Origin: Balanoglossus misakiensis
Taxonomy: Eukaryota; Animalia; Hemichordata
Direction of reading: 5' to 3'
DNA length: 64,000 nt
Assembly: GCA_040954595.2 (NCBI GenBank)
Contig: CM082590.2
Span: forward strand, 5,828,001-5,892,000
Positions 13,001 through 64,000 of this stretch are shown piece by piece. Under the pieces are notes generated by a model that did not search any database, had not been told where the DNA came from, and saw nothing but the letters and a program-made list of their open reading frames with translations. A program made the translations under genes and the position numbers. Positions within the stretch are counted from its first letter, which is position 1. Each line of letters begins with the position of its first letter.

Positions 13001-16000
13001 ACGTTGTGGAGGTCAATGTCCCACAAGCTCAAAGCTTGTGGGGCGTAGCAACAGTAACCAAGGGGGGCGTGGCTTATGCCCGTAGAGTGGAACCATGAAT
13101 TGTTCTCGGCACTAGATGTATAATAATTAATCTTATACCACAAAAAAATTCATCTCTTGAAGAGCAATTACCACTACATAGTTCTTTGCATAAATAAGAG
13201 AGGCACCCCTACTGTCATTTGTATACACAGCAAATTCCTGCATGTTTACATAACTGGCTAACTATTAAAGAGACCAGCTGTTCTATTTGGTGTATGTACA
13301 GGACACCATTGGCAGCTTATGGGTCAGTCAGTGTTTGCCTGTTGATCTCTCTATGTGTGTGTAAGTCTGTCTGTATATGTACTCCGATGTAGACTTCTTC
13401 TGTGTCATCCCTAAATGGGACCACCGTGTCCTTGACGCGAATTTTTATAGAGTGACTGAAGCTCATTGTGATGAAATTCCTAGAGCTTCTTCAACAAGCA
13501 GTTGACTCACATTCCAAGTATCAGATTGGTGATGTCATTTTTATTCCAACTTTAAACGTCTTCATTCCAGGGGGGTTGGACAGCATTGTATGTAGCGTCC
13601 TGGGGAGGTAAATTGGATGCTATGAGAGAGTTGATTAGCCATGGTGCAGATGTCAATGCGAAGGCTGAGGTACGTGAACTGACTTGTTACTTCATGATGG
13701 ATAACATGGCTACATGCGTACTTACAACTTCATGACAACAGTAAAAACTTTTGATGATTATTTTATTGACAGTCAGAAGGAAATCATGAAACATTTATTT
13801 GTAGAGTCAAATTCTTTATCTTGCTGCTAGGAGTGTGTGAATATTCATTTCTTGTTGTTAACAAAAAATGAATATTAGATTGAGCAGTTGACACATTCCA
13901 AGTATCCGATTGGTGATGTCATTTTTATTCCAACTTTAAACGTCTTCATTCCAGAGGGGTTCCACAGCATTGCATTCAGCGTCCGAGGCAGGTCAATTGG
14001 ATGCTATGAGAGAGTTGATTAGCCATGGTGCAGATGTCAATGCGAAGGATGAGGTACGTGAACTGACTTATTACTTCATGATGGATAACATGGCTACACG
14101 TGTACTTACAACTTCATGGCCACAGTGGAAACTATGGATGATTATTTTATTGACAGTCAGATGGAAATCATGAAACATTTATTTGTAGAGTCAAATTCTT
14201 TATCTTGCTGCTAGGAGTGTGTGAATATTCATTTCTTGTTGTTAACAAGAAATGAATATTAGATTGAGCGGTTGACACATTTCAAGTATCAGATTGGTGA
14301 TGTCATTTTTATTCCAACTTTAAACATCTTCATTCCAGAGGGGTTCCACAGCATTGCAATTTGCAGCGTCCAGGGGAGGTCAATTGGATGCTGTCAGGGT
14401 GTTGATTAGCCATGGTGCAGATGTCAATGCGCAGGATAAGGTACGTGAACTGACTTATTAATTCACAGGGGTTTCACTTAAATATGAAGTAGAGGGCCAT
14501 AGTTGCAAAGTAGGGGGCCAATTATGCTGGGGCCGGGGACATGTTGACCTTTGACCCCCCCCCCCCCCCCCCAATTCATTCTACACACAAACACATACAC
14601 ACAAACTCATTTGAGTGTTTCAACCTTTTATTACAGCTCTAGTTATGTATCATGTTACAATACAGTCTTCAATCAAATTCAAAATCACTATCTGGGTCTG
14701 AGTCCTCTGATAACCCTAAAGCACTTGACACTTCTGTAACTTCATGTTGTATGGAAACACTTTCCTCCTCAGTCTTAACCTCAATATCAACCTGCACTGA
14801 AGCATCAGCATAAATGGCCCCATCTGGAGCCCCATCAGAGTCACTGTCTACACATGATGATGGTACATGCACCTGTACTTTTGTGCGGTATCTTCTACTT
14901 TTGGCTTGTTCCCACTGTTCTACAGCTGGAGATATTATCTGTTCTGCCTCAGCACTGGCAACTGGGGGACATGCATTATAGATTCTAACATTTCACTTGA
15001 CAGTCTACTTCTCAATCTAGTTTTGACATTCTTCAAAGTGCTTGCACCCCTTTCAGGCCAAGCATTACTCACAGGAACACAGAGTGCAGCTTCAGCTATT
15101 TTAGTTATCTCTGGGAAAAATGGGGTTAAGCTGTCACATCTCACTAACTCAGTCAAGAGCCACTGAGTTGGTGTAACAGTGCCTTTACATTCCTCAACAT
15201 CAGTAGGCATATTTGCCTTCATGTAATCTACATAGTAGTATTTAAGTTGTGTAAACTCATTCACTAATTTCTTTTACAGCAACTTCCTCATTTTGGTAAA
15301 AGTGATCAGCAAGTACTTTGATATGTGCTTCCCCATATGAACTAAAAGTTGCATTTTCTTTACTTGGCATACCCAATGGGTCAAAGACAGACAGTGCAGT
15401 GAGCACTGGAGATGACTCAGCAAACCTACTATCTATATTCTCTATGAGAGCACCAATGTACTTTCTCATCAGACTTTCAAGATCAAGCTTGCCACTGCCC
15501 TGGAAACATAGCTCAGAAGATATATTTGTGAATGAGTCAATATCAGACACAAACTTATTTATTGGCACATTATCACTGAGAATATGTTTCAGTTTATCTT
15601 TAGTTGCTGAAACCATGCTTGCAATGAGGGAGAAGTTAACTTGATCTCTTTGAAACACAAGAGACAGCTCTGACAAAATGGACAATACAGACTGCAATAT
15701 ATACAATGTGCCAACAAATTTAACCGACTTTATTTTCTTTAGCAGGCCACATGCAAGTGCATCATCTTCAAAGTCATTCAGAGTAAGGAGCAATGCCTCC
15801 AAATCCCTCAGAGTTGCCTCTACAGCTAGATTGAAACTCAATCACCTGGTGTTGCAAGCTTTTTTAAGTCTGTGCATGACAATTTTCTGACTCTTGTCAG
15901 AGGTTAACTTTATTTTTGCAAGCTTTTCTTGCATTTTCAGATATGCTGCTAACCTCTTTGGGGAATTTTCAAAGAACTGCCAAAACTGCCGAATTATTGT

Positions 16001-19000
16001 GGACACATCCTTCACATACTTTATGTTTGTATTACTGTCAGTACAAGCCAATGCCAACCTGTGGCAAACACAATGCACACTAATGATCAAATTATTGTCA
16101 GACTTCAATTTGCTTGCAACACCACTTCTACTGGCAACCATGACAGCAGCCCCATCTGTTGACAACCCCTTACAGCTTTTCACTGACAGATCATTAGATT
16201 CTATTTCTTTTTTCAGCAAGGAATTTATATTCATTATGGATAACGTGGCTACATGCGTACTTACAACTTCATGACCACAGTGGAAACTTTTGATGATTAT
16301 TTTATTGACAGTCAGATGGAAATCATGAAACATTTATTTGTAGAGTCAAATTCTTTCTCTTGCTGCTAGGAGTGTGTGAATATTCATTTCTTGTTGTTAA
16401 CAAGAAATGAATATTAGATTGAGCAGTTGACACATTCCAAGTATCCGATTTGTGATGTCATTTTTATTCCAACTTTAAACGTCTTCATTCCAGGGGGGTT
16501 GGACAGCATTGTATGTAGCGTCCTTTGCAGGTAAATTGGATGCTATGAGAGAGTTGATTAGCCATGGTGCAGATGTCAATGCGAAGGATGAGGTACGTGA
16601 ACTGACTTATTACTTCATTATGGATAACATGGCTACACGTGTACTTACAACTTCATGACCACAGTGGAAACTATAATGGATGATTCTTTTATTGACAGTC
16701 AGATGGAAATCATGAAACATTTATTTGTACCTGTAGTTAAATTCTTTCTCTTGCTACTAGGAGTGTGTGAATATTCATTTCTGGTTGTTAACAAGAAATG
16801 AATATTAGATTGAGCAGTTGACACATTCCAAGTATCCGATTGGTGATGTCATTTTTATTCCAACTTTAAATGTCTTCATTCCAGAGGGGTTCCACAGCAT
16901 TGCATTCAGCGTCCGAGGCAGGTCAATTGGATGCTATGAGAGAGTTGATTAGCCATGGTGCAGATGTCAATGCGAAGGATGTGGTACGTGAACTGACTTA
17001 TTACTTCATTATGGATAACATGGCTACACGTGTACTTACAACTTCATGACCACAGTGGAAACTATAATGGATGATTCTTTTATTGACAGTCAGATGGAAA
17101 TCATGAAACATTTATTTGTACCTGTAGTTAAATTCTTTCTCTTGCTACTAGGAGTGTGTGAATATTCATTTCTGGTTGTTAACAAGAAATGAATATTAGA
17201 TTGAGCAGTTGACACATTCCAAGTATCCGATTGGTGATGTCATTTTTATTCCAACTTTAAATGTCTTCATTCCAGATGGGTTCCACAGCATTGCATTCAG
17301 CGTCCGAGGCAGGTCAATTGGATGCTATGAGAGAGTTGATTAGCCATGGTGCAGATGTCAATGCGAAGGATGAGGTACATGAACTGACTTATTACTTCAT
17401 TATGGATAACATGGCTACATAAATGAATAATTTAAAAAAATGCCTTTTAAAAAGACCTAATTACAACACTATCTTATTTTCATCCAAAATTACTTTGCAT
17501 GATCCAAATTCAATGGGAAGAAACAAGCTAACCCCTGAACAAGAAGAGGAAAAATCCAAAAATTATTACCCGTACTGATTTAGTTTTACTGACCATGATA
17601 GCCTTGGGATCCAGCCATAGGAAGGACAGTAGGACACATTGTACTCTAAATTTAACTCTCTTTACAATTTGGCCAAAGAAGTTGACACAGTTTGTGCCCG
17701 AATGAATAAATATGTTCCAGAAATTAAATTTGTATGGATTTTTTTTGCATTTTGTGTTTTCAAGCCATCTCTGAAATTTTGCTGGCAATCTTTTTTTTTA
17801 ATCTTCCAGATCCCTCCCACCCCGAATATCAAATGGTCCACCCCTAACTAAGCTATGGAGACTAAAACATCCAATGTCAAAAACTATATCACCGATCAAA
17901 GTGTTTTCCTCACTGTTAGAATCAATTGAGATTCTTCACTGTCATACTTGAATCTGTATTCACTTTAACAGTCGGCAATTTTCATTTTGTTTGTGGAAGA
18001 ACTGTGGATTATCCTTTCTAATCAGTCAGTATGCCATTCTTGGTTGTTTTTGCAATATGGCTGATACTTTTGATAGTTTTATTTATTTATATGTTGGTTT
18101 ATATATTGTTTTTTTTTTTTTTTTTTTTTTAACTTTTTTATTGGGATCAAACAACGGTGAACAAATACATTAAACACAAAAAATTACACATTTCCAATTC
18201 CAAATATATGGTCAAGCAGTTACATAAGGTATTAGGGGTGACCATTTACCAATGTGTGCAGCAATTTTGGCATTAGCTCTCGCAATTTTTTCTTCACTTT
18301 TATATACATTTTTAAGCTGCATAATAAAGCTTGTGATGTCTAAAGACATGTTGTCTAGTTTACATCTATAAATATACATGCGCACTTGCAAAGCTATGAA
18401 ATTAACAACAATTTTCTCTTTAGGATCGCCAAAAATCATACATAGTTTCGAAGGTGGACAATTAAGTTTAAGTGGTCCCCCAAAAATAAAAAGTAAATTT
18501 CTCCAGAGGTCGGTGGTGCACTTACATGAGTAAAACAAATGTTCAAGAGACTCTATTTCAGTATTACACAAAGTACAATATGGAGATGGAAACTTCTGTG
18601 GATTAAACTTATTCAACTGTTTGTTTGTATAAAGAATGTTGTGGAGTAACTTAAAATGGAATACTCTGGACTTACTATCAATAGCTAATTTATATATAAG
18701 CTCGTACATTTGTTTCCACTTTAAATCAAACATATTTGTGGCTTTTTCTAAAGTTGCTTGACTTTTCGGTACATCAACAATTAAATCGATAATGTTTTTC
18801 TTCAGACATTTTTTTGTCAATGACTCCAAAATAAGAGTGTTGTTTATATTGTTTGTTTGTTTACACTTCACATTACATTTTTATATTTATTTGTTTGTTT
18901 TAAGAAACCTCTCATTACATTTCAAATTTTATGACATTGTTCTCATGCTCCTCCTTCATTACTTACAGAGAGGAGACACCCTTTTGCACTCTGCAGCAGG

Positions 19001-22000
19001 GTCTGACAATGAAGGCTGTGTCAGATTGTCATTGGAACACAAAGATGATGTGACCATACAAAACAAGGTAAATACCAACCTGGCTTCTGCAGGTTCATTC
19101 TATTAGTATAGAAACATTTGTTTGTTTGTTTTTTGTTTGTTTGTTTGTTTGTTTGTTTGTTTGTTTAGGAAACCTAACAGTATGTTTCAAATGTCATGAC
19201 ATTGTTCTCATTCTCCTCCTTCATTACTTACAGGATGGAAACACCCCTTTGCATCATGCAGCAGGGTCTCACAATGAAGGCGGTCTCAGATTGTTATTGG
19301 AACACAAAGCTGATGTGACCATTCAAAACAAGGTAAATACCAACCTGGCTTCTGCAGGTTAATTCTATTAGTTTAGAAAGATTGGTTTGTTTGTTTGTTT
19401 GTTTGTTTGTTTCTTTATTTATTTGTTTAGGAAACCTCACTTAACATTTCAAATTTTATGACATTGTTCTCATGCTCCTCCTCCATGACATACAGAAATA
19501 CTCACCAGAACGGTGTTGGCAAGAAATTACTCACAAGGAAACTGCTTCATAATAATGGATGACCACAGACAAGTTCTGTACCTCTGATAATGATACCAGT
19601 AACTTAGGTGCTCTATGCGAGTCAAAACACAGTATTTCACTCAAACAAACACTTTCTGAACATTAATGGTCATCAAAGTCATCTCTACTCTTTTGTCTAA
19701 ATAAAGATTTCCCATCCATGTAAATTTTCTGGTCTTATGCAGATCTTTACAAATTGATCCAAATCAGTTTTTCCCTCAAAACTGTCAAGATGAATAAAGG
19801 CACAATCTACTACCCATATTTTCTTTAAATTGTTCATCGTTATGAGGAAATTTATCTGTTGTCTGAAATTCAACATTCTGACATGATGGACGAAATACAC
19901 ACAATGCATTCATTGAATTCAACTCTATCATTTAAAGCTACTTTGACGTGGAGACATCCAACTCAAAAAATGATATAAGCATCCTAAGTACTGTTGAAAA
20001 AACTGGAGGTTAATTATCAATTCAGCGTTAATGTTGGTTGTATGTTTGGTTGCGCTGTTTATGCAGAACTTTTCTTGTTGTACCTCTTACATGATGTTGT
20101 CTGTTTTTGTTTCTTGGATAGGATGGCAACACAGCACTCCACATGGCAGCAATGGGCGAAGACTCTTTGAGGGATTATGGAAAAGTTGTGAAACTATTGT
20201 TGCAATATGGAGCTGATATTGACTGCAAAAACAAGGTACAATCTTCCACTTTTATATTTTATTCCATGACACTCTAGACCTACACCATGTGTTCTGATCA
20301 ACTCCTATTTTCTCAAGTAGTTAATCTTCATAATCTTTAAATTTTTAAATGGACAATTTTATCAAAGTCTTGAAAATGCCTGAACACTATTTTAACCAAG
20401 CACTCTTAAAACAGTATGAGTTTGCACAATGGTCTTCTTTCCAATTGCAGTTTTTGTGGTAAATTTTGTTGAGGATACAATGTATCTATTTGTCATTGTC
20501 CTTTGAATCAAAACTACTCCCTCTATAGGGTCAGGTGTTGTACAGGCAGGTGTTGACTCATGACGGTCGATGCCAATCCTATCTTTGAGACTTTCTATCT
20601 CCACTTTCAGTGATGTGGAGAGTATCAGATAGGGTGATTGTCTGTCGGCCTCCAGCATCTGCCAACTCCTGTCTGTCACCTAGTACAATTGATCATAAGG
20701 AGGTGCCATATAATTTGTCATTGTCCTTTGAATCAAAACTACTCCCTCTATCGGGTCAGGTGTTGTACAGGCAGGTGTTGAATCATGACGGTCGATGCCA
20801 ATCCTATCTTTGAGACTTTCTATCTCCAATTTCAGTGATGTGGAGATTATCAGATAGGGTGATTGTCTGTCGGCCTCCAGCATCTGCCAACTCCTGTCTG
20901 TCACCTAATACAATTGATCATAAGGAGGTGCCATATAATTTGTCATTGTCCTTTGAATCATGACGGTCGATGCCAATCCTATCTTTGAGACTTTCTATCT
21001 CCACTTTCAGTGATGTGGAGAGTATCAGATAGGGCGATTGTCTGTCAGCCTCCAGCATCTGCCAACTCCTGTCTGTCACCTAATACAATTGATCATAAGG
21101 AGGTGCCATATAATTTGTCATTGCCCATTGAATCAAAACTACTCCCTCTATAGGGTCAGGTGTTGTACAGGCAGGTGTTGAATCATGACGGTCGATGCCA
21201 ATCCTATCTTTGAGACTTTCTATCTCCGCTTTCAGTGATGTGGAGAGTATCAGATAGGGCGATTGTCTGTCGGCCTCCAGCATCTGCCAACTCCTGTCTG
21301 TCACCTAATACAATTGATCATAAGGAGGTGCAATATAATTTGTCATTGTCCTTTGAATCAAAACTACTCCCTCTATCGGGTCAGGTGTTGTACAGGCAGG
21401 TGTTGACTCATGACGGTCAATGCCAATCCTATCTTTGAGACTTTCTATCTCCGCTTTCAGTGATGTGGAGAGTATCAGATAGGGTGATTGTCTGTCGGCC
21501 TCCAGCATCTGCCAACTCCTGTCTGTCACCTAATACAATTGATCATAAGGAGGTGCCATATAATTTGTCATTGTCCTTTGAATCAAAACTACTCCCTCTA
21601 TCGGGTCAGGTGTTGTACAGGCAGGTGTTGACTCATGACGGTCGATGCCAATCCTATCTTTGAGACTTTCTATCTCCACTTTCAGTGATGTGGAGATTAT
21701 CAGATAGGGCGATTGTCTGTCGGCCTCCAGCATCTGCCAACTCCTGTCTGTCACCTAATACAATTGATCATAAGGAGGTGCCATATAATTTGTCTTTGTC
21801 CTTTGAATCAAAACTACTCCCTCTATAGGGTCAGGTGTTGTACAGGCAGGTGTTGACTCATGACGGTCGATGCCAATCCTATCTTTGAGACTTTCTATCT
21901 CCACTTTCAGTGATGTGGAGATTATCAGATAGGGCAATTGTCTGTCGGCCTCCAGCATCTGCCAACTCCTGTCTGTCACCTAATACAATTGATCATAAGG

Positions 22001-25000
22001 AGGTGCCATATAATTTGTCATTGTCCTTTGAATCAAAACTACTCCCTCTATAGGGTCAGGTGTTGTACAGACAGGTGTTGACTCATGACGGTCGATGCCA
22101 ATCCTATCTTTGAGACTTTCTATCTCCACTTTCAGTGATGTGGAGAGTATCAGATAGGGCAATTGTCTGTCAGCCTCCAGCATCTGCCAACTCCTGTCTG
22201 TCACCTAATACAATTGATCATAAGGAGGTGCCATATAATTTGTCTTTGTCCTTTGAATCAAAACTACTCCGTCTATAGGGTCAGGTGTTGTACAGGCAGG
22301 TGTTGACTCATGACGGTCGATGCCAATCCTATCTTTGAGACTTTCTATCTCTGCTTTCAGTGATGTGGAGATTATCAGATAGGGCGATTGTCTGTCGGCC
22401 TCCAGCATCTGCCAACTCCTGTCTGTCACTTAATACAATTGATCATAAGGAGGTGCCATATAATTTGTCATTGTCCTTTGAATCAAAACTACTCCCTCTA
22501 TAGGGTCAGGTGTTGTACAGGCAGGTGTTGACTCATGACAGTCGATGCCAATCCTATCTTTGAGACTTTCTATCTCCGCTTTCAGTGATGTGGAGATTAT
22601 CAGATAGGGCGATTGTCTGTCGGCCTCCAGCATCTGCCAACTCCTGTCTGTCACCTAATACAATTGATCATAAGGAGGTGCCATATAATTTGTCATTGTC
22701 CTTTGAATCAAAACTACTCCGTCTATAGGGTCAGGTGTTGTACAGGCAGGTGTTGAATCATGACGGTCGATGCCAATCCTATCTTTAAGACTTTCTATCT
22801 CCAATTTCAGTGATGTGGAGATTATCAGATAGGGTGATTGTCTGTCGGCCTCCAGCATCTGCCAACTCCTGTCTGTCACCTAATACAATTGATCATAAGG
22901 AGGTGCCATATAATTTGTCATTGTCCTTTGAATCATGACGGTCGATGCCAATCCTATCTTTGAGACTTTCTATCTCCACTTTCAGTGATGTGGAGAGTAT
23001 CAGATAGGGCGATTGTCTGTCAGTCTCCAGCATCTGCCAACTCCTGTCTGTCACCTAATACAATTGATCATAAGGAGGTGCCATATAATTTGTCATTGTC
23101 CTTTGAATCAAAACTACTCCCTCTATAGGGTCAGGTGTTGTACAGGCAGGTGTTGAATCATGACGGTCGATGCCAATCCTATCTTTGAGACTTTCTATCT
23201 CCGCTTTCAGTGATGTGGAGAGTATCAGATAGGGCGATTGTCTGTCGGCCTCCAGCATCTGCCAACTCCTGTCTGTCACCTAATACAATTGATCATAAGG
23301 AGGTGCAATATAATTTGTCATTGTCCTTTGAATCAAAACTACTCCCTCTATCGGGTCAGGTGTTGTACAGGCAGGTGTTGACTCATGACGGTCAATGCCA
23401 ATCCTATCTTTGAGACTTTCTATCTCCGCTTTCAGTGATGTGGAGATTATCAGATAGGGTGATTGTCTGTCGGCCTCCAGCATCTGCCAACTCCTGTCTG
23501 TCACCTAATACAATTGATCATAAGGAGGTGCAATATAATTTGTCATTGTCCTTTGAATCAAAACTACTCCCTCTATAGGGTCAGGTGTTGTACAGACAGG
23601 TGTTGACTCATGACGGTCGATGCCAATCCTATCTTTGAGACTTTCTATCTCCACTTTCAGTGATGTGGAGAGTATCAGATAGGACAATTGTCTGTCAGCC
23701 TCCAGCATCTGCCAACTCCTGTCTGTCACCTAATACAATTGATCATAAGGAGGTGCCATATAATTTGTCTTTGTCCTTTGAATCAAAACTACTCCGTCTA
23801 TAGGGTCAGGTGTTGTACAGGCAGGTGTTGACTCATGACGGTCGATGCCAATCCTATCTTTGAGACTTTCTATCTCCGCTTTCAGTGATGTGGAGATTAT
23901 CAGATAGGGCGATTGTCTGTCGGCCTCCAGCATCTGCCAACTCCTGTCTGTCACCTAATACAATTGATCATAAGGAGGTGCCATATAATTTGTCTTTGTC
24001 CTTTGAATCAAAACTACTCCGTCTATAGGGTCAGGTGTTGTACAGGCAGGTGTTGACTCATGACGGTCAATGCCAATCCTATCTTTGAGACTTTCTATCT
24101 CCGCTTTCAGTGATGTGGAGATTATCAGATAGGGCGATTGTCTGTCGGCCTCCAGCATCTGCCAACTCCTGTCTGTCACCTAATACAATTGATCATAAGG
24201 AGGTGCCATATAATTTGTCATTGTCCTTTGAATCAAAACTACTCCCTCTATAGGGTCAGGTGTTGTACAGGCAGGTGTTGACTCATGACGGTCGATGCCA
24301 ATCCTATCTTTGAGACTTTCTATCTCCACTTTCAGTGATGTGGAGAGTATCAGATAGGGCGATTGTCTGTCGGCCTCCAGCATCTGCCAACTCCTGTCTG
24401 TCACCTAATACAATTGATCATAAGGAGGTGCCATATAATTTGTCATTGTCCTTTGAATCAAAACTACTCCCTCTATAGGGTCAGGTGTTGTACAGGCAGG
24501 TGTTGACTCATGACGGTCGATGCCAATCCTATCTTTGAGACTTTCTATCTCCACTTTCAGTGATGTGGAGAGTATCAGATAGGGCGATTGTCTGTCGGCC
24601 TCCAGCATCTGCCAACTCCTGTCTGTCACCTAATACAATTGATCATAAGGAGGTGCCATATAATTTGTCTTTGTCCTTTGAATCAAAACTACTCCGTCTA
24701 TAGGGTCAGGTGTTGTACAGGCAGGTGTTGACTCATGACGGTCAATGCCAATCCTATCTTTGAGACTTTCTATCTCCGCTTTCAGTGATGTGGAGATTAT
24801 CAGATAGGGCGATTGTCTGTCGGCCTCCAGCATCTGCCAACTCCTGTCTGTCACCTAATACAATTGATCATAAGGAGGTGCCATATAATTTGTCATTGTC
24901 CTTTGAATCAAAACTACTCCCTCTATAGGGTCAGGTGTTGTACAGGCAGGTGTTGACTCATGACGGTCGATGCCAATCCTATCTTTGAGACTTTCTATCT

Positions 25001-31000: not shown

Positions 31001-34000
31001 TGAGACTTTCTATCTCCGCTTTCAGTGATGTGGAGAGTATCAGATAGGGCGATTGTCTGTCGGCCTCCAGCATCTGCCAACTCCTGTCTGTCACCTAATA
31101 CAATTGATCATAAGGAGGTGCCATATAATTTGTCATTGCCCATTGAATCAAAACTACTCCCTCTATCGGGTCAGGTGTTGTACAGGCAGGTGTTGACTCA
31201 TGACGGTCGATGCCAATCCTATCTTTGAGACTTTCTATCCCCACTTTCAGTGATGTGGAGATTATCAGATAGGGTGATTGTCTGTCGGCCTCCAGCATCT
31301 GCCAACTCCTGTCTGTCACCTAATACAAATGATCATAAGGAGGTGCCATATAATTTGTCATTGTCCTTTGAATCAAAACTACTCCCTCTATCGGGTCAGG
31401 TGTTGTACAGGCAGGTGTTGACTCATGACGGTCGATGCCAATCCTATCTTTGAGACTTTCTATCTCCACTTTCAGTGATGTGGAGAGTATCAGATAGGGC
31501 AATTGTCTGTCGGCCTCCAGCATCTGCCAACTCCTGTCTGTCACCTAATACAATTGATCATAAGGAGGTGCCATATAATTTGTCATTGCCCATTGAATCA
31601 AAACTACTCCCTCTATCGGGTCAGGTGTTGTACAGGCAGGTGTTGACTCATGACGGTCGATGCCAATCCTATCTTTGAGACTTTCTATCTCCGCTTTCTG
31701 TGATGTGGAGAGTATCAGATAGGGCGATTGTCTGTCGGCCTCCAGCATCTGCCAACTCCTGTCTGTCACCTAATACAATTGATCATAAGGAGGTGCCATA
31801 TAATTTGTCATTGCCCATTGAATCAAAACTACTCCCTCTATCGGGTCAGGTGTTGTACAGGCAGGTGTTGACTCATGACGGTCGATGCCAATCCTATCTT
31901 TGAGACTTTCTATCCCCACTTTCAGTGATGTGGAGATTATCAGATAGGGTGATTGTCTGTCGGCCTCCAGCATCTGCCAACTCCTGTCTGTCACCTAATA
32001 CAAATGATCATAAGGAGGTGCCATATAATTTGTCATTGTCCTTTGAATCAAAACTACTCCCTCTATCGGGTCAGGTGTTGTACAGACAGGTGTTGACTCA
32101 TGACGGTCGATGCCAATCCTATCTTTGAGACTTTCTATCCCCACTTTCAGTGATGTGGAGATTATCAGATAGGGTGATTGTCTGTCGGCCTCCAGCATCT
32201 GCCAACTCCTGTCTGTCACCTAATACAAATGATCATAAGGAGGTGCCATATAATTTGTCATTGTCCTTTGAATCAAAACTACTCCCTCTATCGGGTCAGG
32301 TGTTGTACAGACAGGTGTTGACTCATGACGGTCGATGCCAATCCTATCTTTGAGACTTTCTATCTCCACTTTCAGTGATGTGGAGCGTATCAGATAGGGC
32401 GATTGTCTGTCGGCCTCCAGCATCTGCCAACTGCTGTCTGTCACCTAATACAATTGATCATAAGGAGGTGCCATATAATTTGTCATTGTCCTTTGAATCA
32501 AAACTACTCCCTCTATCGGGTCAGGTGTTGTACAGGCAGGTGTTGACTCATGACGGTCGATGCCAATCCTATCTTTGAGACTTTCTATCCCCACTTTCAG
32601 TGATGTGGAGATTATCAGATAGGGTGATTGTCTGTCGGCCTCCAGCATCTGCCAACTCCTGTCTGTCACCTAATACAAATGATCATAAGGAGGTGCCATA
32701 TAATTTGTCATTGTCCTTTGAATCAAAACTACTCCCTCTATCGGGTCAGGTGTTGTACAGACAGGTGTTGACTCATGACGGTCGATGCCAATCCTATCTT
32801 TGAGACTTTCTATCCCCACTTTCAGTGATGTGGAGATTATCAGATAGGGTGATTGTCTGTCGGCCTCCAGCATCTGCCAACTCCTGTCTGTCACCTAATA
32901 CAAATGATCATAAGGAGGTGCCATATAATTTGTCATTGTCCTTTGAATCAAAACTACTCCCTCTATCGGGTCAGGTGTTGTACAGACAGGTGTTGACTCA
33001 TGACGGTCGATGCCAATCCTATCTTTGAGACTTTCTATCTCCACTTTCAGTGATGTGGAGCGTATCAGATAGGGCGATTGTCTGTCGGCCTCCAGCATCT
33101 GCCAACTGCTGTCTGTCACCTAATACAATTGATCATAAGGAGGTGCCATATAATTTGTCATTGTCCTTTGAATCAAAACTACTCCCTCTATCGGGTCAGG
33201 TGTTGTACAGGCAGGTGTTGACTCATGACGGTCGATGCCAATCCTATCTTTGAGACTTTCTATCTCCACTTTCAGTGATGTGGAGAGTATCAGATAGGGC
33301 AATTGTCTGTCGGCCTCCAGCATCTGCCAACTCCTGTCTGTCACCTAATACAATTGATCATAAGGAGGTGCCATATAATTTGTCATTGCCCATTGAATCA
33401 AAACTACTCCCTCTATCGGGTCAGGTGTTGTACAGGCAGGTGTTGACTCATGACGGTCGATGCCAATCCTATCTTTGAGACTTTCTATCTCCGCTTTCAG
33501 TGATGTGGAGAGTATCAGATAGGGCGATTGTCTGTCGGCCTCCAGCATCTGCCAACTCCTGTCTGTCACCTAATACAATTGATCATAAGGAGGTGCCATA
33601 TAATTTGTCATTGCCCATTGAATCAAAACTACTCCCTCTATCGGGTCAGGTGTTGTACAGGCAGGTGTTGACTCATGACGGTCGATGCCAATCCTATCTT
33701 TGAGACTTTCTATCTCCACTTTCAGTGATGTGGAGAGTATCAGATAGGGCAATTGTCTGTCGGCCTCCAGCATCTGCCAACTCCTGTCTGTCACCTAATA
33801 CAATTGATCATAAGGAGGTGCCATATAATTTGTCATTGCCCATTGAATCAAAACTACTCCCTCTATCGGGTCAGGTGTTGTACAGGCAGGTGTTGACTCA
33901 TGACGGTCGATGCCAATCCTATCTTTGAGACTTTCTATCTCCGCTTTCAGTGATGTGGAGAGTATCAGATAGGGCGATTGTCTGTCGGCCTCCAGCATCT

Positions 34001-37000
34001 GCCAACTCCTGTCTGTCACCTAATACAATTGATCATAAGGAGGTGCCATATAATTTGTCATTGCCCATTGAATCAAAACTATTCCCTCTATCGGGTCAGG
34101 TGTTGTACAGGCAGGTGTTGACTCATGACGGTCGATGCCAATCCTATCTTTGAGACTTTCTATCTCCACTTTCAGTGATGTGGAGAGTATCAGATAGGGC
34201 AATTGTCTGTCGGCCTCCAGCATCTGCCAACTCCTGTCTGTCACCTAATACAATTGATCATAAGGAGGTGCCATATAATTTGTCATTGTCCTTTGAATCA
34301 AAACTATTCCCTCTATCGGGTCAGGTATTGTACTGGCAGGTGTTGACTCATGACGGTCGATGCCAATCCTATCTTTGAGACTTTCTATCTCCGCTTTCAG
34401 TGATGTGGAGAGTATCAGATAGGGCGATTGTCTGTCGGCCTCCAGCATCTGCCAACTCCTGTCTGTCACCTAATACAATTGATCATAAGGAGGTGCCATA
34501 TAATTTGTCATTGCCCATTGAATCAAAACTATTCCCTCTATCGGGTCAGGTGTTGTACAGGCAGGTGTTGACTCATGACGGTCGATGCCAATCCTATCTT
34601 TGAGACTTTCTATCTCCACTTTCAGTGATGTGGAGAGTATCAGATAGGGCAATTGTCTGTCGGCCTCCAGCATCTGCCAACTCCTGTCTGTCACCTAATA
34701 CAATTGATCATAAGGAGGTGCCATATAATTTGTCATTGTCCTTTGAATCAAAACTATTCCCTCTATCGGGTCAGGTATTGTACTGGCAGGTGTTGACTCA
34801 TGACGGTCGATGCCAATCCTATCTTTGAGACTTTCTATCTCCGCTTTCAGTGATGTGGAGAGTATCAGATAGGGCGATTGTCTGTCGGCCTCCAGCATCT
34901 GCCAACTCCTGTCTTTCACCTAATAATCTGACAATTCATTATTAGGAGATTTTTTCATTGTTTGAGATGTTTGAGTTTATGATGAGTATTTGTTGTTTGT
35001 TTTTTTATTCATTTGTTCAATTTAAGAAATTAACTCATTTCAGTTTTCTGACTTCCTCATCATGCTCCTCCTTCATTACTTACAGGATGGAAACACCCCT
35101 TTGCACTCTGCAGCAAGGTCTCGCAATGAAGGCGGTCTCAGATTGTTATTGGAACACAAAGCTGATGTGACCATTCAAAACAAGGTAAATGCCAACCTGG
35201 CTTCTGCAGGTTAATTCTATTAGTATTGAAACATTTATTTGTTTGTTGAAATCTCACATTACATTTTAAATTTTGTGACATTGTTCTCATGCTCCTCCTT
35301 CATTACTTACAGGATGGAAACACCCCTTTGCATCATGCAGCAGAGTATAACAATGAAGGCGGTCTCAGATTGTTATTGGAACACAAAGCTGATGTGACCA
35401 TACAAAACAAGGTAAATACCTACCTGGCTTCTGCAGGTTAATTCTATCAGTATAGAAACATTTATTTGTTTGTTTGTTTATTTGTTCGTTTAGGAAACCT
35501 CACAGAACATTTCAAATGTTATGACATTGTTCTCATGCTCCTCCTCCATTACATACAGAAATACTCACCAGAACGGTATTGGCAAGAAATTAAGTTACTC
35601 ACAAGGAAACTGCTTCATAATAATGGGTGACCACAGACAAGTTCTGTACCTCTGATAATGATACCAGTAACTTAGGTGCTCTATGCCAGTCAAAACACAG
35701 TATTTCACTCAAACCATAGACCCTAGAGAAAGAAGGACGCGCAACTGCGGCATAGATCAAAGGGTTTGGGGATTATTGGTATGACAATGTTCTTTTGCAT
35801 ATAATTAACACCTAGGACAGTTGGACAATGACTTCCTTACTTCGGCATGTGTCGACCCCACCAGTGATGTGAAAACTTGCCACCAAACTGACACTCCTGC
35901 ATTTCAGCAGCCACTGCGTTTTTTTCTACAATTCAAAAAGTATTACGTTGTCTGTGTTCATTATTATGGTTTGGTGTTCGTCTGTCGGTTGAACGGTCAT
36001 TTCTAGTGCCACAAGCTTCATTTAAAAAATGTAAACAAATCATCCATGTTTTTTGCATGTCCGACTGGGCACTCATATTTCTTGGTAATGCTGACACTTT
36101 TCGTAATAATTTTATGTTTGCGTGAAACATTGAAACAAAAATTGTGGTTTAGGGGCATTTTATTTCGCAGTGCGTGAACAATAAAACAGATTTCACGAAA
36201 ACAGTTTGTAAACAAACTGGGTGGATTTTCACGTTGCGCTATGGCCGCCATCTTGGTTTTTCATGGTTGATGACGGTGGGCAACCCTCAGTACAGTTAGC
36301 TCACAGCCTTGTCAAATACGCGGACTGTTAGACAAAAGATGCTTGTTTTGGACGCTGTCAGACTCAGAAGTGCCAAATTTGTGTTTAACTTGTCCAGATG
36401 TGTTCCATAAATGATCGCTGCAGTTCAACCTCGTTGCAGTTTTCTCGTCTTCTGCGAGATGTTGTGAGGTGTTTGTGATAACTTCACGCAAAACGCGAGA
36501 CTTTGCGTTAGTTTATCCATATTTAATTTGTAAATTGGATTATTGGGGGTTATCCGGAAATAATGTATGCAAAAGAACATCGTTTCAAGAAAAACCTGTA
36601 GTTGCGCGTCCTTCTTTCTCTAGGGTCTATGAACAAACACTTTCTGAACATTAATGGTCATCAAAGTCATCTCTAGTCTTTTGTCAAAACAAAGATTTCC
36701 CATCCATGTAAATTTTCTTGTCAGATCTTTACAAATTGATCCAAATCAGTTTTTCCCTCAAAACTGTCAAGATGAATAAAGGCACAATCTACTACCGATG
36801 TTTTCTTTAAATTGTTCATCGTTATGAGGAAATTTATCTGTTGTCTGAAATTCAACATTCTGACATGATGGACGAAATACACACAATGCATTCATTTAAT
36901 TCAACTCTATCATTTAAAGCTACATTGACGTGGAGACATCCAACTCAAAAAATGATATAAGCATCCTAAGTACTGTTGAAAAACTAGAGGTTAATTATCA

Positions 37001-40000
37001 ATTCAGTGTTAACGTTGGTTGTATGTTTGTTTGCGTTGTTTATGCAGAACTTTTCTTGTTGTACCTCTTACATGATGTTGTCTGTTTTTGTTTCTTGTAT
37101 AGGATGGCAACACAGCACTTCACATGGCAGCAATGGGCAAAAAGTATTGGGGGGATTATGGACAAGTTGTGAAACTATTGTTGCAATATGGAGCTGATAT
37201 TGACTGCAAAAACAAGGTACAATCTTCCACTTTTATATTTTATTCCATGACACTCTAGACCTACACCATGTGTTCTGATCAACTCCCATTTTCTAAAGTT
37301 GTTAATCTTCATAATCTTTGAATTTGAAATGATTAATGTTTATGCACATTTTTTCAAAGTCTTGAAAATGCCTGAACACTATTTTAACCAAACACTCCTA
37401 AAGCAGTATGAGTTTGCACAATGGTCTTTATTCCATTATAGTTTTTGTGGTAAATTTTCTTGAGGATAAAATGTATCTATTTGCCATTGTCCTTTGAATC
37501 AAAACTATTCCCTCTATCGGGTCAGGTGTTGTACAGGCAGGTGTTGACTCATGACGGTCGATGCCAATCCTATCTTTGAGACTTTCTATCTCCACTTTCA
37601 GTGATGTGGAGAGTATCAGATAGGGTGATTGTCTGTCGGCCTCCAGCATCTGCCAACTCCTGTCTGTCACCTAATACAATTGATCATAAGGAGGTGCCAT
37701 ATAATTTGTCATTGTCCTTTGAATCAAAACTACTCCCTCTATCACGTCAGGTGTTGTATAGGCAGGTGTTGACTCATGACGGTCGATGCCAATCCTATCT
37801 TTGAGACTTTCTATCTCCACTTTCAGTGATGTGGAGAGTATCAGATAGGGCGATTGTCTGTCGGCCTCCAGCATCTGCCAACTCCTGTCTGTCACCTAAT
37901 ACAATTGATCATAAGGAGGTGCCATATAATTTGTCATTGTCCTTTGAATCAAAACTACTCCCTCTATCACGTCAGGTGTTGTATAGGCAGGTGTTGACTC
38001 ATGACGGTCGATGCCAATCCTATCTTTGAGACTTTCTATCTCCACTTTCAGTGATGTGGAGCGTATCAGATAGGGCGATTGTCTGTCGGCCTCCAGCATC
38101 TGCCAACTCCTGTCTGTCACCTAATACAATTGATCATAAGGAGGTGCCATATAATTTGCCATTGTCCTTTGAATCAAAACTACTCCCTCTATCGGGTCAG
38201 GTGTTGTACAGGCAGGTGTTGACTCATGACGGTCGATGCCAATCCTATCTTTGAGACTTTCTATCTCCACTTTCAGTGATGTGGAGAGTATCAGATAGGG
38301 CGATTGTCTGTCGGCCTCCAGCATCTGCCAATCCTGTCTGTCACCTAATAATCTGACAATTCAATTTAAGATGTTCTCATTGTTTGAGATGTATGAGTTT
38401 GTGATGACTATTTGTTGTTGTTTTTTTTATTCATTTGTTCATTTTAAGAAATTAACTCATGTGACATTTCAGTTTTCTGACATCTTCATCATGCTCCTCC
38501 TTAATTACTTACAGGATGGAAACACCCCTTTGCACTCTGCAGCAGAGTATAACAATGAAGGCGGTCTCAGATTGTTATTGGAACACAAAGCTGATGTGAC
38601 CATACAAAACAAGGTAAATACCTACCTGGCTTCTGCAGGTTAATTCTATCAGTATAGAAACATTTATTTGTTTGTTTGTTTGTTTGTTCGTTTAGGAAAC
38701 CTAACAGAACGTTTCAAATGTTATGACATTGTTCTCATGCTCCTCCTCCATTACATACAGAAATACTCACCAGAACGGTGTTGGCAAGAAATTAAGGTAC
38801 TCACAAGGAAACTGCTTCATAATAATGGATGACCACAGACAAGTTCTGTACCTCTGATAATGATACCAGTAACTTAGGTGCTCTATGCGAGTCAAAACAC
38901 AGTATTTCACTCAAACAAACACTTTCTGAACATTAATGGTCATCAAAGTCATCTCTAGTCTTTTGTCTAAATAAAGATTTCCCATCCATGTAAATTTTCT
39001 GGTCTTATGCAGATCTTTACAAATTGATCCAAATCAGTTTTTCCCTCAAAACTGTCAAGATGAATAAAGGCACAATCTACTACCCATATTTTCTTTAAAT
39101 TATTCATCGTTATGAGGAAATTTATCTGTTGTCTGAAATTCAACATTCTGACATGGTGGACGAAATACACACAATGCATTCATTGAATTCAACTTTATCA
39201 TTTAAAGCTACATTGACGTGGAGACATCCAACTCAAAAATGATATAAGCATCCTAAGTACTGTTGAAAAACTAGAGGTTAATTATCAATTCAGTGTTACA
39301 GTTGGTAGTCTGTTTGGTGGCGCTGTTTATGCAGAACTTTTCTTGTTGTACCTCTTATATGATGTTGTCTGTTTTTTTTTCTTGGATAGGATGGCAACAC
39401 AGCACTCCACATGGCAGCAATGGGTGAAGAGTCGTATGGGGATTATGGAAAAGTTGTGAAACTATTGTTGCAATATGGAGCTGATATTCACTGCAAAGAT
39501 AAGGTATAATCTTCCACTTTTATATTTTATTCCATGACACTCTAGACCTACACCATGTGTTCTGATCAACTCCCATTTTCTCAAGTAGTTAATCTTCATA
39601 ATCTTTGAATTTGAAATGCACAATTTTATCAAAGTCTTGAAAATGCCTGAACACTATTTTAACCGAACACTCCTAAAACAGTATGAGTTTGCACAATGGT
39701 CTTCTTTCCATTGTAGTTTTTGTGGTAAATTTTATTGAGGATACAATGTATCTATTTGTCATTGTCCTTTGAATCAAAACTACTTCCTCTATCAGGTCAG
39801 GTGTTGTACTGGCAGGTGTTGACTCATGAAGGTCGATGCCAATCCTATCTTTGAGACTTTCTATCTCCACTTTCAGTGATATGGAGAGTATCAGATAGGG
39901 CGATTGTCTGTCAGCCTCCAGCATCTGCCAACTCCTGTCTGTCACCTAATACAATTGATCATAAGGAGGTGCCATATAATTTGTCATTGTCCTTTGAATC

Positions 40001-43000
40001 AAAACTACTCCCTCTATCGGGTCAGGTGTTGTACAGGCAGGTGTTGACTCATGACGGTCGATGCCAATCCTATCTTTGAGACTTTCTATCTCCACTTTCA
40101 GTGATGTGGAGAGTATCAGATAGGGCGATTGTCTGTCGGCCTCCAGCATCTGCCAACTCCTGTCTGTCACCTAATAATCTGACAATTCCTAATAAGGAGA
40201 TTTTTCTTATTTGTGTTTTAAATAATTCTGTACTTTTGATACAGTCTGATGGAAAAGAGGAATCAGTGTTTATTTTCTTTGGATGATTGTTGATTTTGTG
40301 AATATCAGGTTTTGTTCACTATTAAATATGTCACTTGATGTGGTTATTTTTTTCATGAAAAATTTAAAACAAAACTTTAAAATTACATTAGAATTTAATG
40401 AATTTGGAATTATGGTATCTCTTACATTATTACTACTTTTTTAAATTTTTACATCATAATTAAAGTTTCACTTTCAATTCTTTTTATCTTAAATAATTAG
40501 ACTGGAAAGACACCACTTGATGTTGCTAAAAAGTCTTGTAAGGAGGTGCTGTTGGATTACATTCAGGTGAGTGTAATTTTTATATTATCATGAATTTTAA
40601 TAAAATATACAACCTGAAATGTGCTAATTCTTATTCATCTTGAATTAAAAGTGTCCATTGATTTCAGTGTGATATAAATTACTTAATGTGGTGTCACTCT
40701 TAACTGTACTCTCCAAACCCACAAATAAAATTGTATTTTTATGATTTCTTTATTCAACCAGAGACGAAAGGAGTTCAAGGTCCTGATGATGGAACCAGGT
40801 GTGAAATGTGACACTTTTAAGTTGTTCTTCGCTGGAGATGGTGGAGTTGGTAAGACTACATTATTGGAGTCACTTCAGAAGGTATGTTGATATTTTTGTT
40901 TCATTTGCGTTAAAGTTCTAGTAGGCCATATTACAATAAATGAAGGGTTGCTTGTGTGAAACTTGATGGGCCAGAATGAATTCTTAATAAACCCTTGCTC
41001 ACTCTGTCCTCAAAATGTCATTTTCTGTGATTTGTGAAGCAAGAGATGCCTATCATGTGATAAATATATAATCCCAATGATATTTTTCTTTGTTTAACGT
41101 CATTGTATACTCGTGGTTTTCACGGAGGTGTACAACTTCTCATCTACGGCTCGAAGTTGCACGACTCCCCGAAAACCACTCATATAGGATGACGTCAAAC
41201 AAAGAAATATATCGTGGGATTATATGTAATTTTTTCTTTCACTCCCCCTTATCAAAGAGTGAAGAAACAACCCTGGAATCTGAAGAAAGTGAACACATTC
41301 CCACACCTGGTATTGATGTCCAAAGTGTTCATATTCCTGACGTAGGCAAAGTCAGTGTTTGGGATTTTGCCGGCCAGGCTGAGTATTACGTCACTCATAA
41401 CATGTTTCTGGGAGCACCCAATGCTGTCTCCATATTGGTGTTCAAAGCAACAGACGAGAATGGTAAACTCAACACCTTTGAACAAGTGTTCCCACAGGTA
41501 AGAATCTTCACAGGAAAGTTAGACTGTTTCGTTTATCACTTTCCAAGTTTTATCTGTAGGAATGAAAAATATAGCTGTTTGAGAAACTTTATTCCATGTG
41601 CAACACTATCTCGGTCACCATTCATGGCTTTTTGAAAGAGTTGCAGATATTTCTATAATTAGTCTCCTGCAGAACCAACATGCCATTGTTGTTCAATAAT
41701 TATTTCATATAGTGTAACACATAGCTCCAGATATTACCTGAATCCTGAGAAATCTCATATTGGATTCAATTCATGATCCCTTTGACTCAAAAATAATCCT
41801 TTTCACAAATATTCTCATTTGTAGATTTTGTTTTGGTTGCGGTTTCTGAAAGGAACAACCCACATGGACAGGTATTCATTTGATAAGTCAGGAGAAGGAT
41901 ACGAGAAACCAGTGGTGATATTGGTTGCAAGTCGAGCTGATAAGTTGAAGAAAGAATTCATGGCTCAAGGTTGGTGTAACTCATAACTAACAACCTAACC
42001 TCTTAACCTAACTTGCAATCCTACCATGGCAGCTTCAAAAAGCTTGGACCTAACCTGAAAAAGCTCAAACTAGTTTTTGGCATTGATTACTCAAAATACA
42101 TTATTTTGTGTCAATCAGCTGGTGGTCATTACAAGTGCATTCATGTTGTGATTTCACAGCACGTCTTTTGCTGAAGAAAGTTCTCAAAGAAGCAAAGAAG
42201 ATGTTTAATGACTATTTAGACATACCAAGTGACAAATTTCTGTTGAATTGTCGTGATTCAATGGACAGTGAAATGAAGAAACTCCGCCACTGTTTACATC
42301 AGAACAAGGTAACTATGCTGTCTTGTATTCAGTTGAAATCCCAATTTTTATTAAAGCTATAACAGCTACCACTATTTTTATTAGCTCTGCTGTCACTTGT
42401 GTCAGCCGAGCTGTAGCAGTAGGTTGATAAGTGTCCGTCCGTCTGTCGTCCGTCCGTCGTCCGTCGTCCGTCAACTTTTGGTATTTCAATCTTCTTCTTT
42501 AAAACAACTTGGCATATTTAGCTGAAATTTGGTTGGAATGTGTGTTATGGTGCCCTTACCTGATTTTGTTAATTTGGATATGATGGGGTCATGAATATGC
42601 AAATTAGATCTAAAAATAGATTTTTTGGTAAAAAATCTTCTTCTCCCTAACTACATGTACGATGGAGCTGAAATTTGGTAGGAATGTGTGTTATGGTGTC
42701 CCTACCTGATTTTGTTAATTTGGATATGATGGGGTCATGAATATGCAAATTAGAACCTTTGTGCTTCCTTTTGACGTTGTTCTTTAGGATTCAATTCTTT
42801 CTTTCTTTAGCACAATGAATCAAGCTGAATTTGGATAAATACTTGTGATGTCTATGTTTGGTTTTGTTCAATAGAATACAATTGTTATGAATTATAACCA
42901 AGGGTATTCATATCATTGCCCAGGTTACACTGTTAAAGTCAGCAGAGCTCTTTTGACCGATAGGTCACTTGTTATTTTAATGATTTTACATTCAAACTTT

Positions 43001-46689: not shown

Positions 46690-47606
46690 ATGCCTATGGA
46701 CACATCACATGGACATGAATGCAAGAATGGACACAGATCATTTATGAAGTCAATGTGAACAACTTTACTTGAAGTCAGTACATTGTAAACAGAATACCAG
46801 AGTTGTTATAATTTGTCTGGTCACAATATGTCTTTTGACACATCACGTACATGGACATGAATGCAAGAATGGACACATCATTTATGAAGTGAATGTGAAC
46901 AACTTTACTTGAAGTCAGTACATTGTAAACAGAATACCAGAGTTGTAATAATTTGTCTGATCACAATATGTCTATAGACACATCACGTACATGGACATGA
47001 ATGCAAAAATGGACACATCATTTATGAAGTCAATGTGAACAACTTTGCTTGAAGTCAGTACATTGTAAACAGAATACCACATTTGTAATAATTTGTCTGG
47101 TCACAATATGTCTATTGACACATCACGTACATGGACATGAATGCAAGAATGGACACAGATCATTTATGAAGTCGAATGTGAACAACTTCACTTGAAGTCA
47201 GTACATTGTAAACAGAATACCAGAGTTGTTATAATTTGTCTGATCACAATATGTCTATAGACACATCACGTACATGGACATGAATGCAAGAATGGACACA
47301 GATCATTTATGAAGTCAATGTGAACAACTTTACTTGAAGTCAGTACATTGTAAACAGAATACCAGAGTTGTAATAATTTGTCTGATCACAATATGTCTAT
47401 AGACACATCACGTACATGGACATGAATGCAAGAATGGACACATCATTTATGAAGTGAATGTGAACAACTTTACTTGAAGTACATTGTAAACAGAATACCA
47501 GAGTTGTAATAATTTGTCTGATCACAATATGTCTATAGACACATCACGTACATGGACATGAATGCAAGAATGGACACAGATCATTTAAAAAGTCAATGTG
47601 AATAAC
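46690..47606. repeat. ~121-124-bp tandem repeat (~7.5 copies) directly 3' of the ROCO stop codon
   Basis: Recurring CATGGACATGAATGCAAGAATGGACAC...GAAGTCAGTACATTGTAAACAGAATACC. Confidence 0.92.
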
Positions 47607-47610
47607 TTAA

Positions 47611-62903: not shown

Positions 62904-64000
62904 CTGTCAAAACAACGAAAGAAAAATAAGGACCATCAGTGTACACGTCCATGCTGTGATGGATAATACATGATGACATACAAGTTGACATTGGCATTGA
63001 AAGGGTTAAAGGGACAAAGTCTCTTTCTCACTGCATTTTTTCCAGTAATTATGTTTGATACAAGACACCGTTTATCTTATTCTACATGTGGACATACAGT
63101 GAATCAACGTTCAACATCACACAACTTCCATCCGGTTTGTAGGATATGAGAGTAAAAATCCTGCCAAAATGAATTAATGGTAAAGGTCGATTAATTATTT
63201 CGGCGAGTTTTTCACTCTTAAGTCTACAAGTCTACAATCTGATCTGAGAGGCTTCAAAACCGTCTTAATAGTGTGTGTGTGACACCCATAAGACGTGAGA
63301 CCTTTAAAAAAAAAACGGAGACAATGGGACGCCAATAGAAGAGGATAGCTTGTTTGAATGCCACAATACAAGTGACAACGGCTATTGACGCGAACACAAC
63401 CCGAGTTACGCAACAACGTTTGGTGACAATAACGAAGACAGCAAGCTCTCCGGTTTGTACAAAAACACAAATCAATAAAATCTACCCTGGCGAGTTTAGC
63501 CTTGGAGCAAGTCAGTTTCGTTAAAGGGACTAAGTCTCTCTCTATAGCTGTGCTTTTTCCATGAATTATGTTTAATACAAGACACCGTTTTTGTTATTCT
63601 ATCTACATGTGGATATATAGTGAATCAACGTTCAACCACACACAACTTCCATCCCGTTTGTAGGATATGAGAATAGAATCTCGCCCAAAATTCATTTTGG
63701 CGAGTTAATCACTCTCATATCATACAAGCGGGATGGAAGTTGTGTGTGGTTGAACGTTGATTCACTACATATCCACATGTAGAATAATAATTAATATAAA
63801 CAGTGTCTTGTATCAAACATAATTAATGGAAAAAGGGTGTGAGAGAGACTTTGTCCCTTTAATGCAAAACATGCAAATTCATTGATAATTCTAATTTGCA
63901 ATTCTCCTAAATATTGCCTAGAGACAGACAGAGGAACGAAAGTGAAAGAGAAATTTAATAAGTTTCTTTTACAAATATTTGATATTGAAGATGTCCTTCT

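Follow-up and report, generated by a model that had tools for sequence, protein, structure and literature searches.

The question raised by this locus is whether a row of near-identical ankyrin exon cassettes diversifies the binding surface of an intracellular receptor, in the germline or within the individual, or whether the cassettes are a by-product of tandem duplication. The locus lies in a stretch of 64,000 nucleotides (nt) from the acorn worm Balanoglossus misakiensis (NCBI GenBank assembly GCA_040954595.2, contig CM082590.2, positions 5,828,001 to 5,892,000 of the forward strand), which we refer to as the window. An initial annotation, made from the letters of the window, had read the cassettes as the modular library of an immune receptor analogous to the NLRs. 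Our analysis leads us to conclude that this ankyrin-ROC-COR gene, which has no kinase and ends in a predicted death domain, probably encodes a germline-diversified intracellular sensor of non-self.

The gene extends from 1013 to 46585, and its exons, joined computationally, form a single open frame of 1301 codons, consisting of a predicted first exon of 10 codons, an N-terminal capping repeat, 14 ankyrin exons, a C-terminal capping repeat and six ROC-COR exons (Table 1). The 14 whole ankyrin exons between 13571 and 39503, recovered with one query exon per type and then with splice-site anchors, comprise six exons of type A, five of type B and three of type C. Together with the caps the array has 16 ankyrin repeats, and the Pfam family Ank is found on all three exon types. 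As the initial annotation had stated, every one of the 14 exons has AG and GT borders and phase 0/0 and sits in a near-identical cassette; the frame is kept throughout, including at the type A exon at 14339, which has 102 nt, and the splice sites are identical or nearly so within each cassette type. One repeat per phase-0 exon is a common layout in ankyrin genes generally, and the layout alone is therefore no evidence for a shuffling mechanism. At the start of the gene, the N-terminal capping exon is 57% identical over 28 amino acids to residues 11–38 of a Ptychodera relative.

The exons were placed in ankyrin register by alignment to solved designed ankyrin repeat proteins (DARPins), so that exon codons 33, 1, 3, 11, 12 and 31 correspond to ankyrin positions 2, 3, 5, 13, 14 and 33, which we take to be the set randomised in DARPin libraries. 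The randomised positions of DARPins sit on the concave surface (PMC8229355, cited here, like the papers below, from the parts available). In type A all six positions are variable, among 12 variable codons of 33 (P = 8e-4), and in type B four of the six, among 11 variable codons (P = 0.08). The coincidence of variable sites and randomised groove that had been proposed is thus borne out for type A and falls short of significance for type B. The sites that selection seems to have picked also include positions 9, 10 and 16 and a loop insertion. Outside the groove, the LISHGADVNA segment of type A is invariant even in its DNA, and the variants GSD/GSH/RSR/EYN had been listed correctly for type B. 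Type A comprises about four distinct variants, since exons 13955, 16885 and 17276 differ by only 1–2 nt. Exons 13571 and 13955 do differ at the 11 nt counted earlier, all in residue-changing codons (8 codons; 10.5 non-synonymous and 0.5 synonymous changes by a path count), and their flanking introns differ at 15 of 320. Ten of the 11 ungapped repeats have a sister repeat of at least 70% identity (mean 0.89).

The excess of variation in the groove is visible in tree-free counts of variable sites at codon positions 1–2. For type A, the six a priori codons hold 9 variable sites out of 12, compared with 7/54 in the other codons (p = 5e-5) and 7/76 in the shared intron flank (p = 3e-6). The corresponding counts for type B are 6/12, 9/54 (p = 0.02) and 5/56 (p = 0.003). 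None of the four-fold silent sites is variable in either type (0/11 in type A, 0/7 in type B). An old divergent donor as the origin of the variable patch is rejected for types A and B because silent sites inside the patch do not differ. The site model M2a is preferred over M1a in type A (p = 7e-4) and in type B (p = 0.005). For type A, the one type simulated, the observed value of 14.6 exceeded that of every one of 45 neutral simulations on mosaic genealogies (highest 7.3). In type C the variation is concentrated in a five-residue loop where 6–8 of 30 nt differ, compared with 3–5% in the introns, and several of the changes are silent; this loop and the orphan half exon described below had no place in the initial annotation.

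The introns and frameworks around these sites are kept alike. Cassettes are 92–96% identical within type, and homogenisation has acted within three cassette types, not on a single cassette. B-C-satellite blocks of 1.2–1.7 kb recur at 92–94% identity, and a 6.4-kb duplicate (20173–26452 and 28568–34948, 95.5% identity) has its breakpoint inside a type C exon. Within the type A array, the cassette intron resumes beyond a fragment of a hAT transposon. Four-gamete conflicts occur in 6 pairs in type A, all involving one site, so that recurrent mutation could explain them, and in 9 pairs in type B, including a silent change that travels with its codon and points to exchange within the exon. Judged from the letters of the window, the chimeric exons, the breakpoint within an exon and the truncated transposon demonstrate rearrangement of the DNA. 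Assembly artefact was rejected as the main cause because introns differ by 4–8%, public sequencing runs (X1 and X2, see below) hold the cassette junctions, and relatives have homogenised repeats too; the number of copies in the assembly may still be wrong. A 225-bp tandem repeat (97% matches, ~60 copies) stands behind each type C exon, at 20488–34925, 37479–38350 and 39754–40176, with a copy number between 2 and more than 25 per site, and recombination in the array may use it as a substrate. At 19480–19500, 35540–35560 and 38745–38765, three additional acceptor flanks of type B end in AG and lead into non-ankyrin sequence with early stops; they are cassette ends without an exon.

We propose, as the simplest account, that the near-identical intron-exon cassettes misalign, and that unequal crossing-over and gene conversion would then alter the number and order of repeats and create chimeric exons. 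Since all exons are in phase 0, every duplication, deletion or conversion would stay in frame. Concerted evolution in the germline by these processes would keep introns and frameworks alike, while selection would retain new residues in the groove.

The proposal of ankyrin repeats on a ROC-COR-death body is supported as well, with the ROC, COR and death fold located at 40762–46585, beyond the stretch delimited in the initial annotation, and with the death fold resting on a structural model. The ankyrin array is followed by ROC, then by COR, and last by a predicted death fold that a long insertion interrupts. Pfam Roc is found on exon 41258 (E = 9e-7) and COR-B on the last exon (E = 3e-8), both above the family cut-off; the P-loop GDGGVGKTT and the WDFAGQ and DxxG motifs are intact in the joined frame, and a model of the last exon matches the Chlorobium RocCOR structure 3DPU (E = 1e-8) and also LRRK structures. 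By its ROC followed by COR the gene product classes as a ROCO protein, with predicted GTPase activity. The last 176 residues, folded alone with AlphaFold2 (mean pLDDT 78.8), form six helices, the fourth and fifth of which are separated by an unstructured insertion of ~60 residues. In a wide structural search the top 14 rows were all death-domain entries and the list was almost entirely death-fold, the best match being the MyD88 death domain (Z 11.7, rmsd 3.3, 100 residues aligned), with the caveat that helical bundles can attain such Z by chance. Foldseek returned nothing at E ≤ 0.001 for this fold, with the Pelle death domain as its top row, and Pfam at E ≤ 0.05 found no Death family on the last exon, so that the C-terminal death domain is predicted to be present but divergent. 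A kinase-loop motif occurs in 0 of 168 sequences (the window gene and its homologues), and no N-terminal kinase lies within the window, where the frame starts 10 codons before the capping repeat; the length ahead of this repeat is the same in Ptychodera XP_070546714.

A search with the last exon as query yielded 161 proteins at E ≤ 0.001, and the description of the family rests on 150 of these matches, with 22 clusters looked up. The closest among the matches listed come from Ptychodera, Glandiceps and Saccoglossus and are mostly named DAPK1-like, followed by echinoderms and amphioxus. In a quick tree of 65 of the 168 sequences, none of them an identified DAPK1, the window gene pairs with Ptychodera XP_070550841 (support 99), and the pair falls in a clade of 15 rows (support 94) whose 9 named rows are all hemichordate. 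By protein search and tree, the relatives form an expanded hemichordate multigene family, a search for which the initial annotation had named as a check. Identity to XP_070550841 is 51% over ROC-COR, and that protein also carries B- and C-like repeats. Glandiceps and Ptychodera members likewise have homogenised repeats. Among the 33 homologues that carry at least three repeats (33 after 5 isoform or near-duplicate rows were dropped), 9 contain sister repeats that are 70% identical or more. In amphioxus the relatives carry CARD, death, caspase or GT4-conflict domains at their ends. Among closely related ROC-COR bodies of Branchiostoma the effectors differ, with a GT4 glycosyltransferase, a caspase with CARDs, a CARD with death domain, or tandem CARDs. 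The brittle star Amphiura has an ANK-ROC-COR protein (XP_072045771) of 26 near-identical repeats variable at positions 2, 3, 5, 13 and 14, which reads as the same regime in an echinoderm.

Five public sequencing runs hold the last exon in part, none of them on record as RNA; their contigs are short, so that alleles are not separable from paralogues and repeats are not countable. Runs X1 and X2 contain type A variants foreign to the window, such as Met-Asn, Leu-Phe and Lys at positions 13–14, and loose contig ends in the B and C exons of the runs crowd at codons 11–14. Runs X4 and X5 have no contig over three type A exons, and X4 has one B-like contig, an absence that is uninformative. Run X3, which is small, has short contigs and bears a DNA label that is a guess, contains intron-free joins of three sorts (A end to B exon, B end to B start, C end to C-terminal cap), the last with 28 of 30 letters like the start of exon 40501. 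All three joins are in genomic order and none requires skipping. In record 18 of X3 (window 19237–19333) a type A end and a single B exon are followed by 130 letters. A 15-letter piece taken from this tail has no window match above chance, and the tail is possibly another exon type in a sister gene.

Such data also bear on a different reading, in which the exons are a combinatorial library inside one animal and every cell mounts an ankyrin surface of its own on a shared ROC-COR-death body, either by alternative splicing as in Dscam or by somatic copying from donor cassettes as in lamprey VLRs. The uniform phase and splice sites of the 14 exons would permit it, as would the lone B exon of record 18, and in amphioxus an annotated isoform (XP_078594978) lacks exactly 99 residues, or three repeats, compared with XP_078594975; that isoform, however, was modelled automatically, and read mapping goes astray in repeats. 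Summed contig depth in X1 is 5e4–1e5 for type B exons and ~2e3 for type C (thinnest listed contigs 26–40), far from the 5:3 ratio of B to C in the window, which hints at a much larger pool of B cassettes, but summed depth is not copy number. Over 18900–19370 the type B depth is 25–50 times that of type C in X1, and the ratio differs between X1 and X2, which come from the same sample. The three joins observed keep genomic order, neither a recombinase nor a signal sequence was noticed close to the array, and germline exchange accounts for every pattern in the window. The germline VLR gene is incomplete and is completed from donor cassettes in somatic cells, whereas the window gene is complete in the germline. 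We consider a library within the individual unlikely, and the "library" of the initial annotation stands as germline diversity among copies only. An extended version of the idea is more speculative still: acorn worms would maintain a donor pool of ankyrin cassettes, hundreds to thousands strong, and assemble or splice these onto ROC-COR-death bodies within the individual. If true, deuterostomes would have, in addition to immunoglobulins and lamprey VLRs, a third anticipatory receptor system, one built on ankyrin repeats and amounting to a natural DARPin library.

Several observations weigh against a germline-diversified sensor or qualify the support for it. Codon-wise selection, which the initial annotation had named as a check, is not significant for type C (M2a over M1a, p = 0.17), several B and C pairs have pN close to pS (pairwise pN/pS being by itself too weak to decide selection), and the selection test, in our own implementation with neighbour-joining trees, covers only 6, 5 and 3 short sequences. 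Of the exon differences listed for X1 and X2 (from 40 of 44 and 40 of 144 rows), 24 of 32 fall on the six groove sites and only 2 are silent when multi-letter codon changes are counted together, in tables that hide rare changes at deeply covered framework sites and are thereby biased towards the groove. In the homologues 116 of 294 differences between sister repeats are on the six sites (39% compared with 18% expected by share), a clustering that relaxed constraint would fit too, as the groove is the least constrained part of any ankyrin repeat. We infer that X3 is likely RNA, which would make transcription of the family likely; its spliced contigs differ from the window by 10–13 letters, however, and they make it likely that alleles or sister copies follow the modelled splicing, which is not the same as expression of the window copy itself. 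Finally, no finding here links the gene to infection. On balance, positive selection on the type A and B exons is supported by codon comparisons in small samples, with no significant signal in type C.

In a further reading, the cassettes are runaway, satellite-like tandem duplications, and the groove variation reflects relaxed constraint in a redundant or decaying paralogue. Satellite arrays, transposon insertions and the orphan half exon would be expected of such a locus, the lack of a selection signal in type C agrees with it, and exon 18969, in which conserved framework residues are altered (Pro7, Leu23 and Ala28), may be decaying. Relaxed constraint cannot, however, raise the variability of groove sites above that of neighbouring introns and silent sites, all 14 whole exons keep frame and splice sites within the open 1301-codon frame, and spliced sister copies exist. 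We therefore regard runaway duplication as improbable, and the diversified sensor as the better account.

For the function of such a sensor we are guided by NLRs and by Roc-COR conflict proteins (PMC8195603). By analogy with these, a ligand bound to the ankyrin groove would switch the dimer state of ROC-COR, and the switched ROC-COR would expose the death domain to a death-fold adaptor, leading to NF-kB signalling or cell death. An immune role of the gene is likewise a proposal. The ligand might instead come from conspecifics or from internal conflict (allorecognition, gametes, symbionts or transposon proteins) and not from pathogens: the Podospora NLRs with near-identical repeats, the best-studied such genes, were found via allorecognition (PMC13449251, PMC4986451), and no result here names a ligand. 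The family expansion and the CARD, caspase and GT4 swaps of amphioxus fit the counter-invader systems of marine invertebrates (PMC8195603), and we give a non-pathogen ligand little weight compared with the sensing of foreign molecules.

Table 1. Features of the ankyrin-ROC-COR gene and its repeat array (window coordinates)
Feature	Position	Strand	Remarks
Predicted first coding exon, ATG, 10 codons	1013..1042	+	GTAAGT donor, phase 0
N-terminal capping ankyrin exon, 99 nt	2844..2942	+	donor picked for phase
Type A exons 1-3: 13571-13669, 13955-14053, 14339-14440	13571..14440	+	384-bp cassettes; Pfam Ank
Truncated hAT transposon fragment within type A array	14463..16221	-	Pfam Dimer_Tnp_hAT E = 1e-8; ends approximate
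Type A exons 4-6: 16494-16592, 16885-16983, 17276-17374	16494..17374	+	391-bp cassettes
Type B exons 18969-19067 and 19234-19332, 99 nt each	18969..19332	+	
Type C exon, 38 codons (114 nt), variable five-residue loop following helix 1	20122..20235	+	
Two arrays of 225-bp intronic tandem repeat, in 14.85-kb intron	20488..34925		
Orphan 3' half of type C exon; donor retained, acceptor lost; fused to 225-bp satellite	28568..28630	+	
Exons B 35086-35184, B 35313-35411, C 37103-37216, B 38515-38613, C 39390-39503	35086..39503	+	duplicated B-C-satellite blocks
C-terminal capping ankyrin exon	40501..40566	+	
ROC GTPase exons 40762-40881, 41258-41497, 41825-41969, 42160-42308	40762..42308	+	Pfam Roc; acceptor at 41258 provisional
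COR domain: exon 43976-44152 and first part of exon 45140-46585	43976..46050	+	Pfam COR-B
Predicted death domain; stop codon 46583-46585	46088..46585	+	AlphaFold2 model, structural matches

Other elements of the window are of less direct concern. The 10.6-kb intron after the N-terminal capping exon is filled by a PIF/Harbinger-type transposon (7500–13100) with a DDE_Tnp_4 transposase in two frames (10069–11174, +) and a YqaJ exonuclease (9257–9772, −), a combination that recalls what we take to be ISL2EU elements; a THAP-like start at 7768 was read by eye and is not a Pfam match. Between the A and B arrays lies the 3' fragment of a non-LTR retrotransposon (18212–18880, −; zf-RVT, E = 1e-11), and directly past the stop codon a 140-bp tandem repeat of 6.4 copies (46707–47608). 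A neighbouring gene has a long Ser/Thr-rich exon (60583–63027, −) with a GKAP/DLGAP domain (Pfam E = 7e-8).

The combination of near-identical repeats and a hypervariable groove is known from fungal NLRs and brown-algal ROCOs, and the locus would extend it to the "DAPK1-like" genes without a kinase, an animal family that has been overlooked; it is expanded in hemichordates, and echinoderms and amphioxus have relatives of it. Its members could make up a class of intracellular immune sensors that has so far been missing from invertebrate deuterostomes, with a GTPase switch in place of the ATPase of NLRs, and selection would in that case have chosen the same residues that engineers randomise in DARPins. 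The locus also makes it testable, by long reads alone, whether the diversity of invertebrate repeat receptors arises in the germline only or also by splicing or somatic exchange.

The database name of the relatives reflects the DAPK1 group of Roco proteins, with which the window gene shares the order of ankyrin repeats, ROC-COR and C-terminal death domain (PMC6337361, as far as the available text goes). Unlike DAPK1 it has no kinase or calmodulin region, carries 16 repeats with the caps, and belongs to a fast-evolving multigene family; lacking a kinase, it is not DAPK1. The hemichordate ANK-ROC-COR annotations (Ptychodera XP_070550841 and XP_070546714, Glandiceps XP_077996865, Saccoglossus XP_006815106 and others) are members of the same family in which a different repeat type has been amplified in each; they are automatic annotations for which we found no study of function. 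Our literature search, with most subscription papers outside it, found no diversifying animal ANK-ROC-COR-death family, and figure 2 of PMC11378527, with about forty animal architectures, may include that domain order.

Among other Roc-COR proteins, the bacterial AP-GTPase conflict proteins share a fast-evolving repeat sensor, Roc-COR and a variable effector, and the CARD, caspase and GT4 ends in amphioxus correspond to the effector swapping described for conflict systems (PMC8195603). Trichoplax provides an expansion of ROCOs with CARD and death domains in an animal (PMC4104024), and ROCO-TIR proteins are present in Aplysia (PMC9334734). The bacterial and Trichoplax proteins have leucine-rich repeat (LRR) or TPR sensors, and the accessible parts of those papers do not describe diversification by exon cassettes.

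The closest parallel in exon structure is with the LRR-ROCO candidate receptors of brown algae (Zambounis 2012, PMC3341825; Teng 2024, PMC11378527), which, in the parts of the papers available, have one repeat per in-phase exon before ROC-COR, keep broken spare exons within their introns, are under diversifying selection at the concave face and form an expanded family. The window likewise holds one repeat per in-phase exon together with duplicated and broken exons. The window gene differs in being an animal gene with ankyrin repeats instead of LRRs, exons in phase 0 instead of phase 2, and a C-terminal death fold. Splicing variants are reported for the algal genes, whereas in the window family likely splicing is seen in three joins in genomic order, and the reversed spare exons of the algae were not found in the window.

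The closest parallel in mode of evolution is with the fungal NLRs with conserved ankyrin repeats (Dyrka 2014, PMC4986451; Ament-Velasquez and Saupe 2026, PMC13449251), which share near-identical repeats, selected sites in the inner helix and hairpin, concerted evolution and a death-type output, according to the available text. Types A and B combine near-identity of the repeats with positive selection at groove sites, as in the fungal HIC type, and type C gives no significant sign of such selection. Near-identical repeats occur in only 0.8% of metazoan ANK/TPR/WD proteins (PMC4986451, in the part available). In contrast to the fungal genes, the switch of the window gene is ROC-COR and not NACHT or NB-ARC, the order is sensor, switch and effector, and the repeats are exons in homogenised intron cassettes; repeat-number polymorphism is demonstrated for the fungal genes. 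The window gene is NLR-like in layout and is not an NLR, as its nucleotide-binding part is a ROC domain and it has no STAND ATPase.

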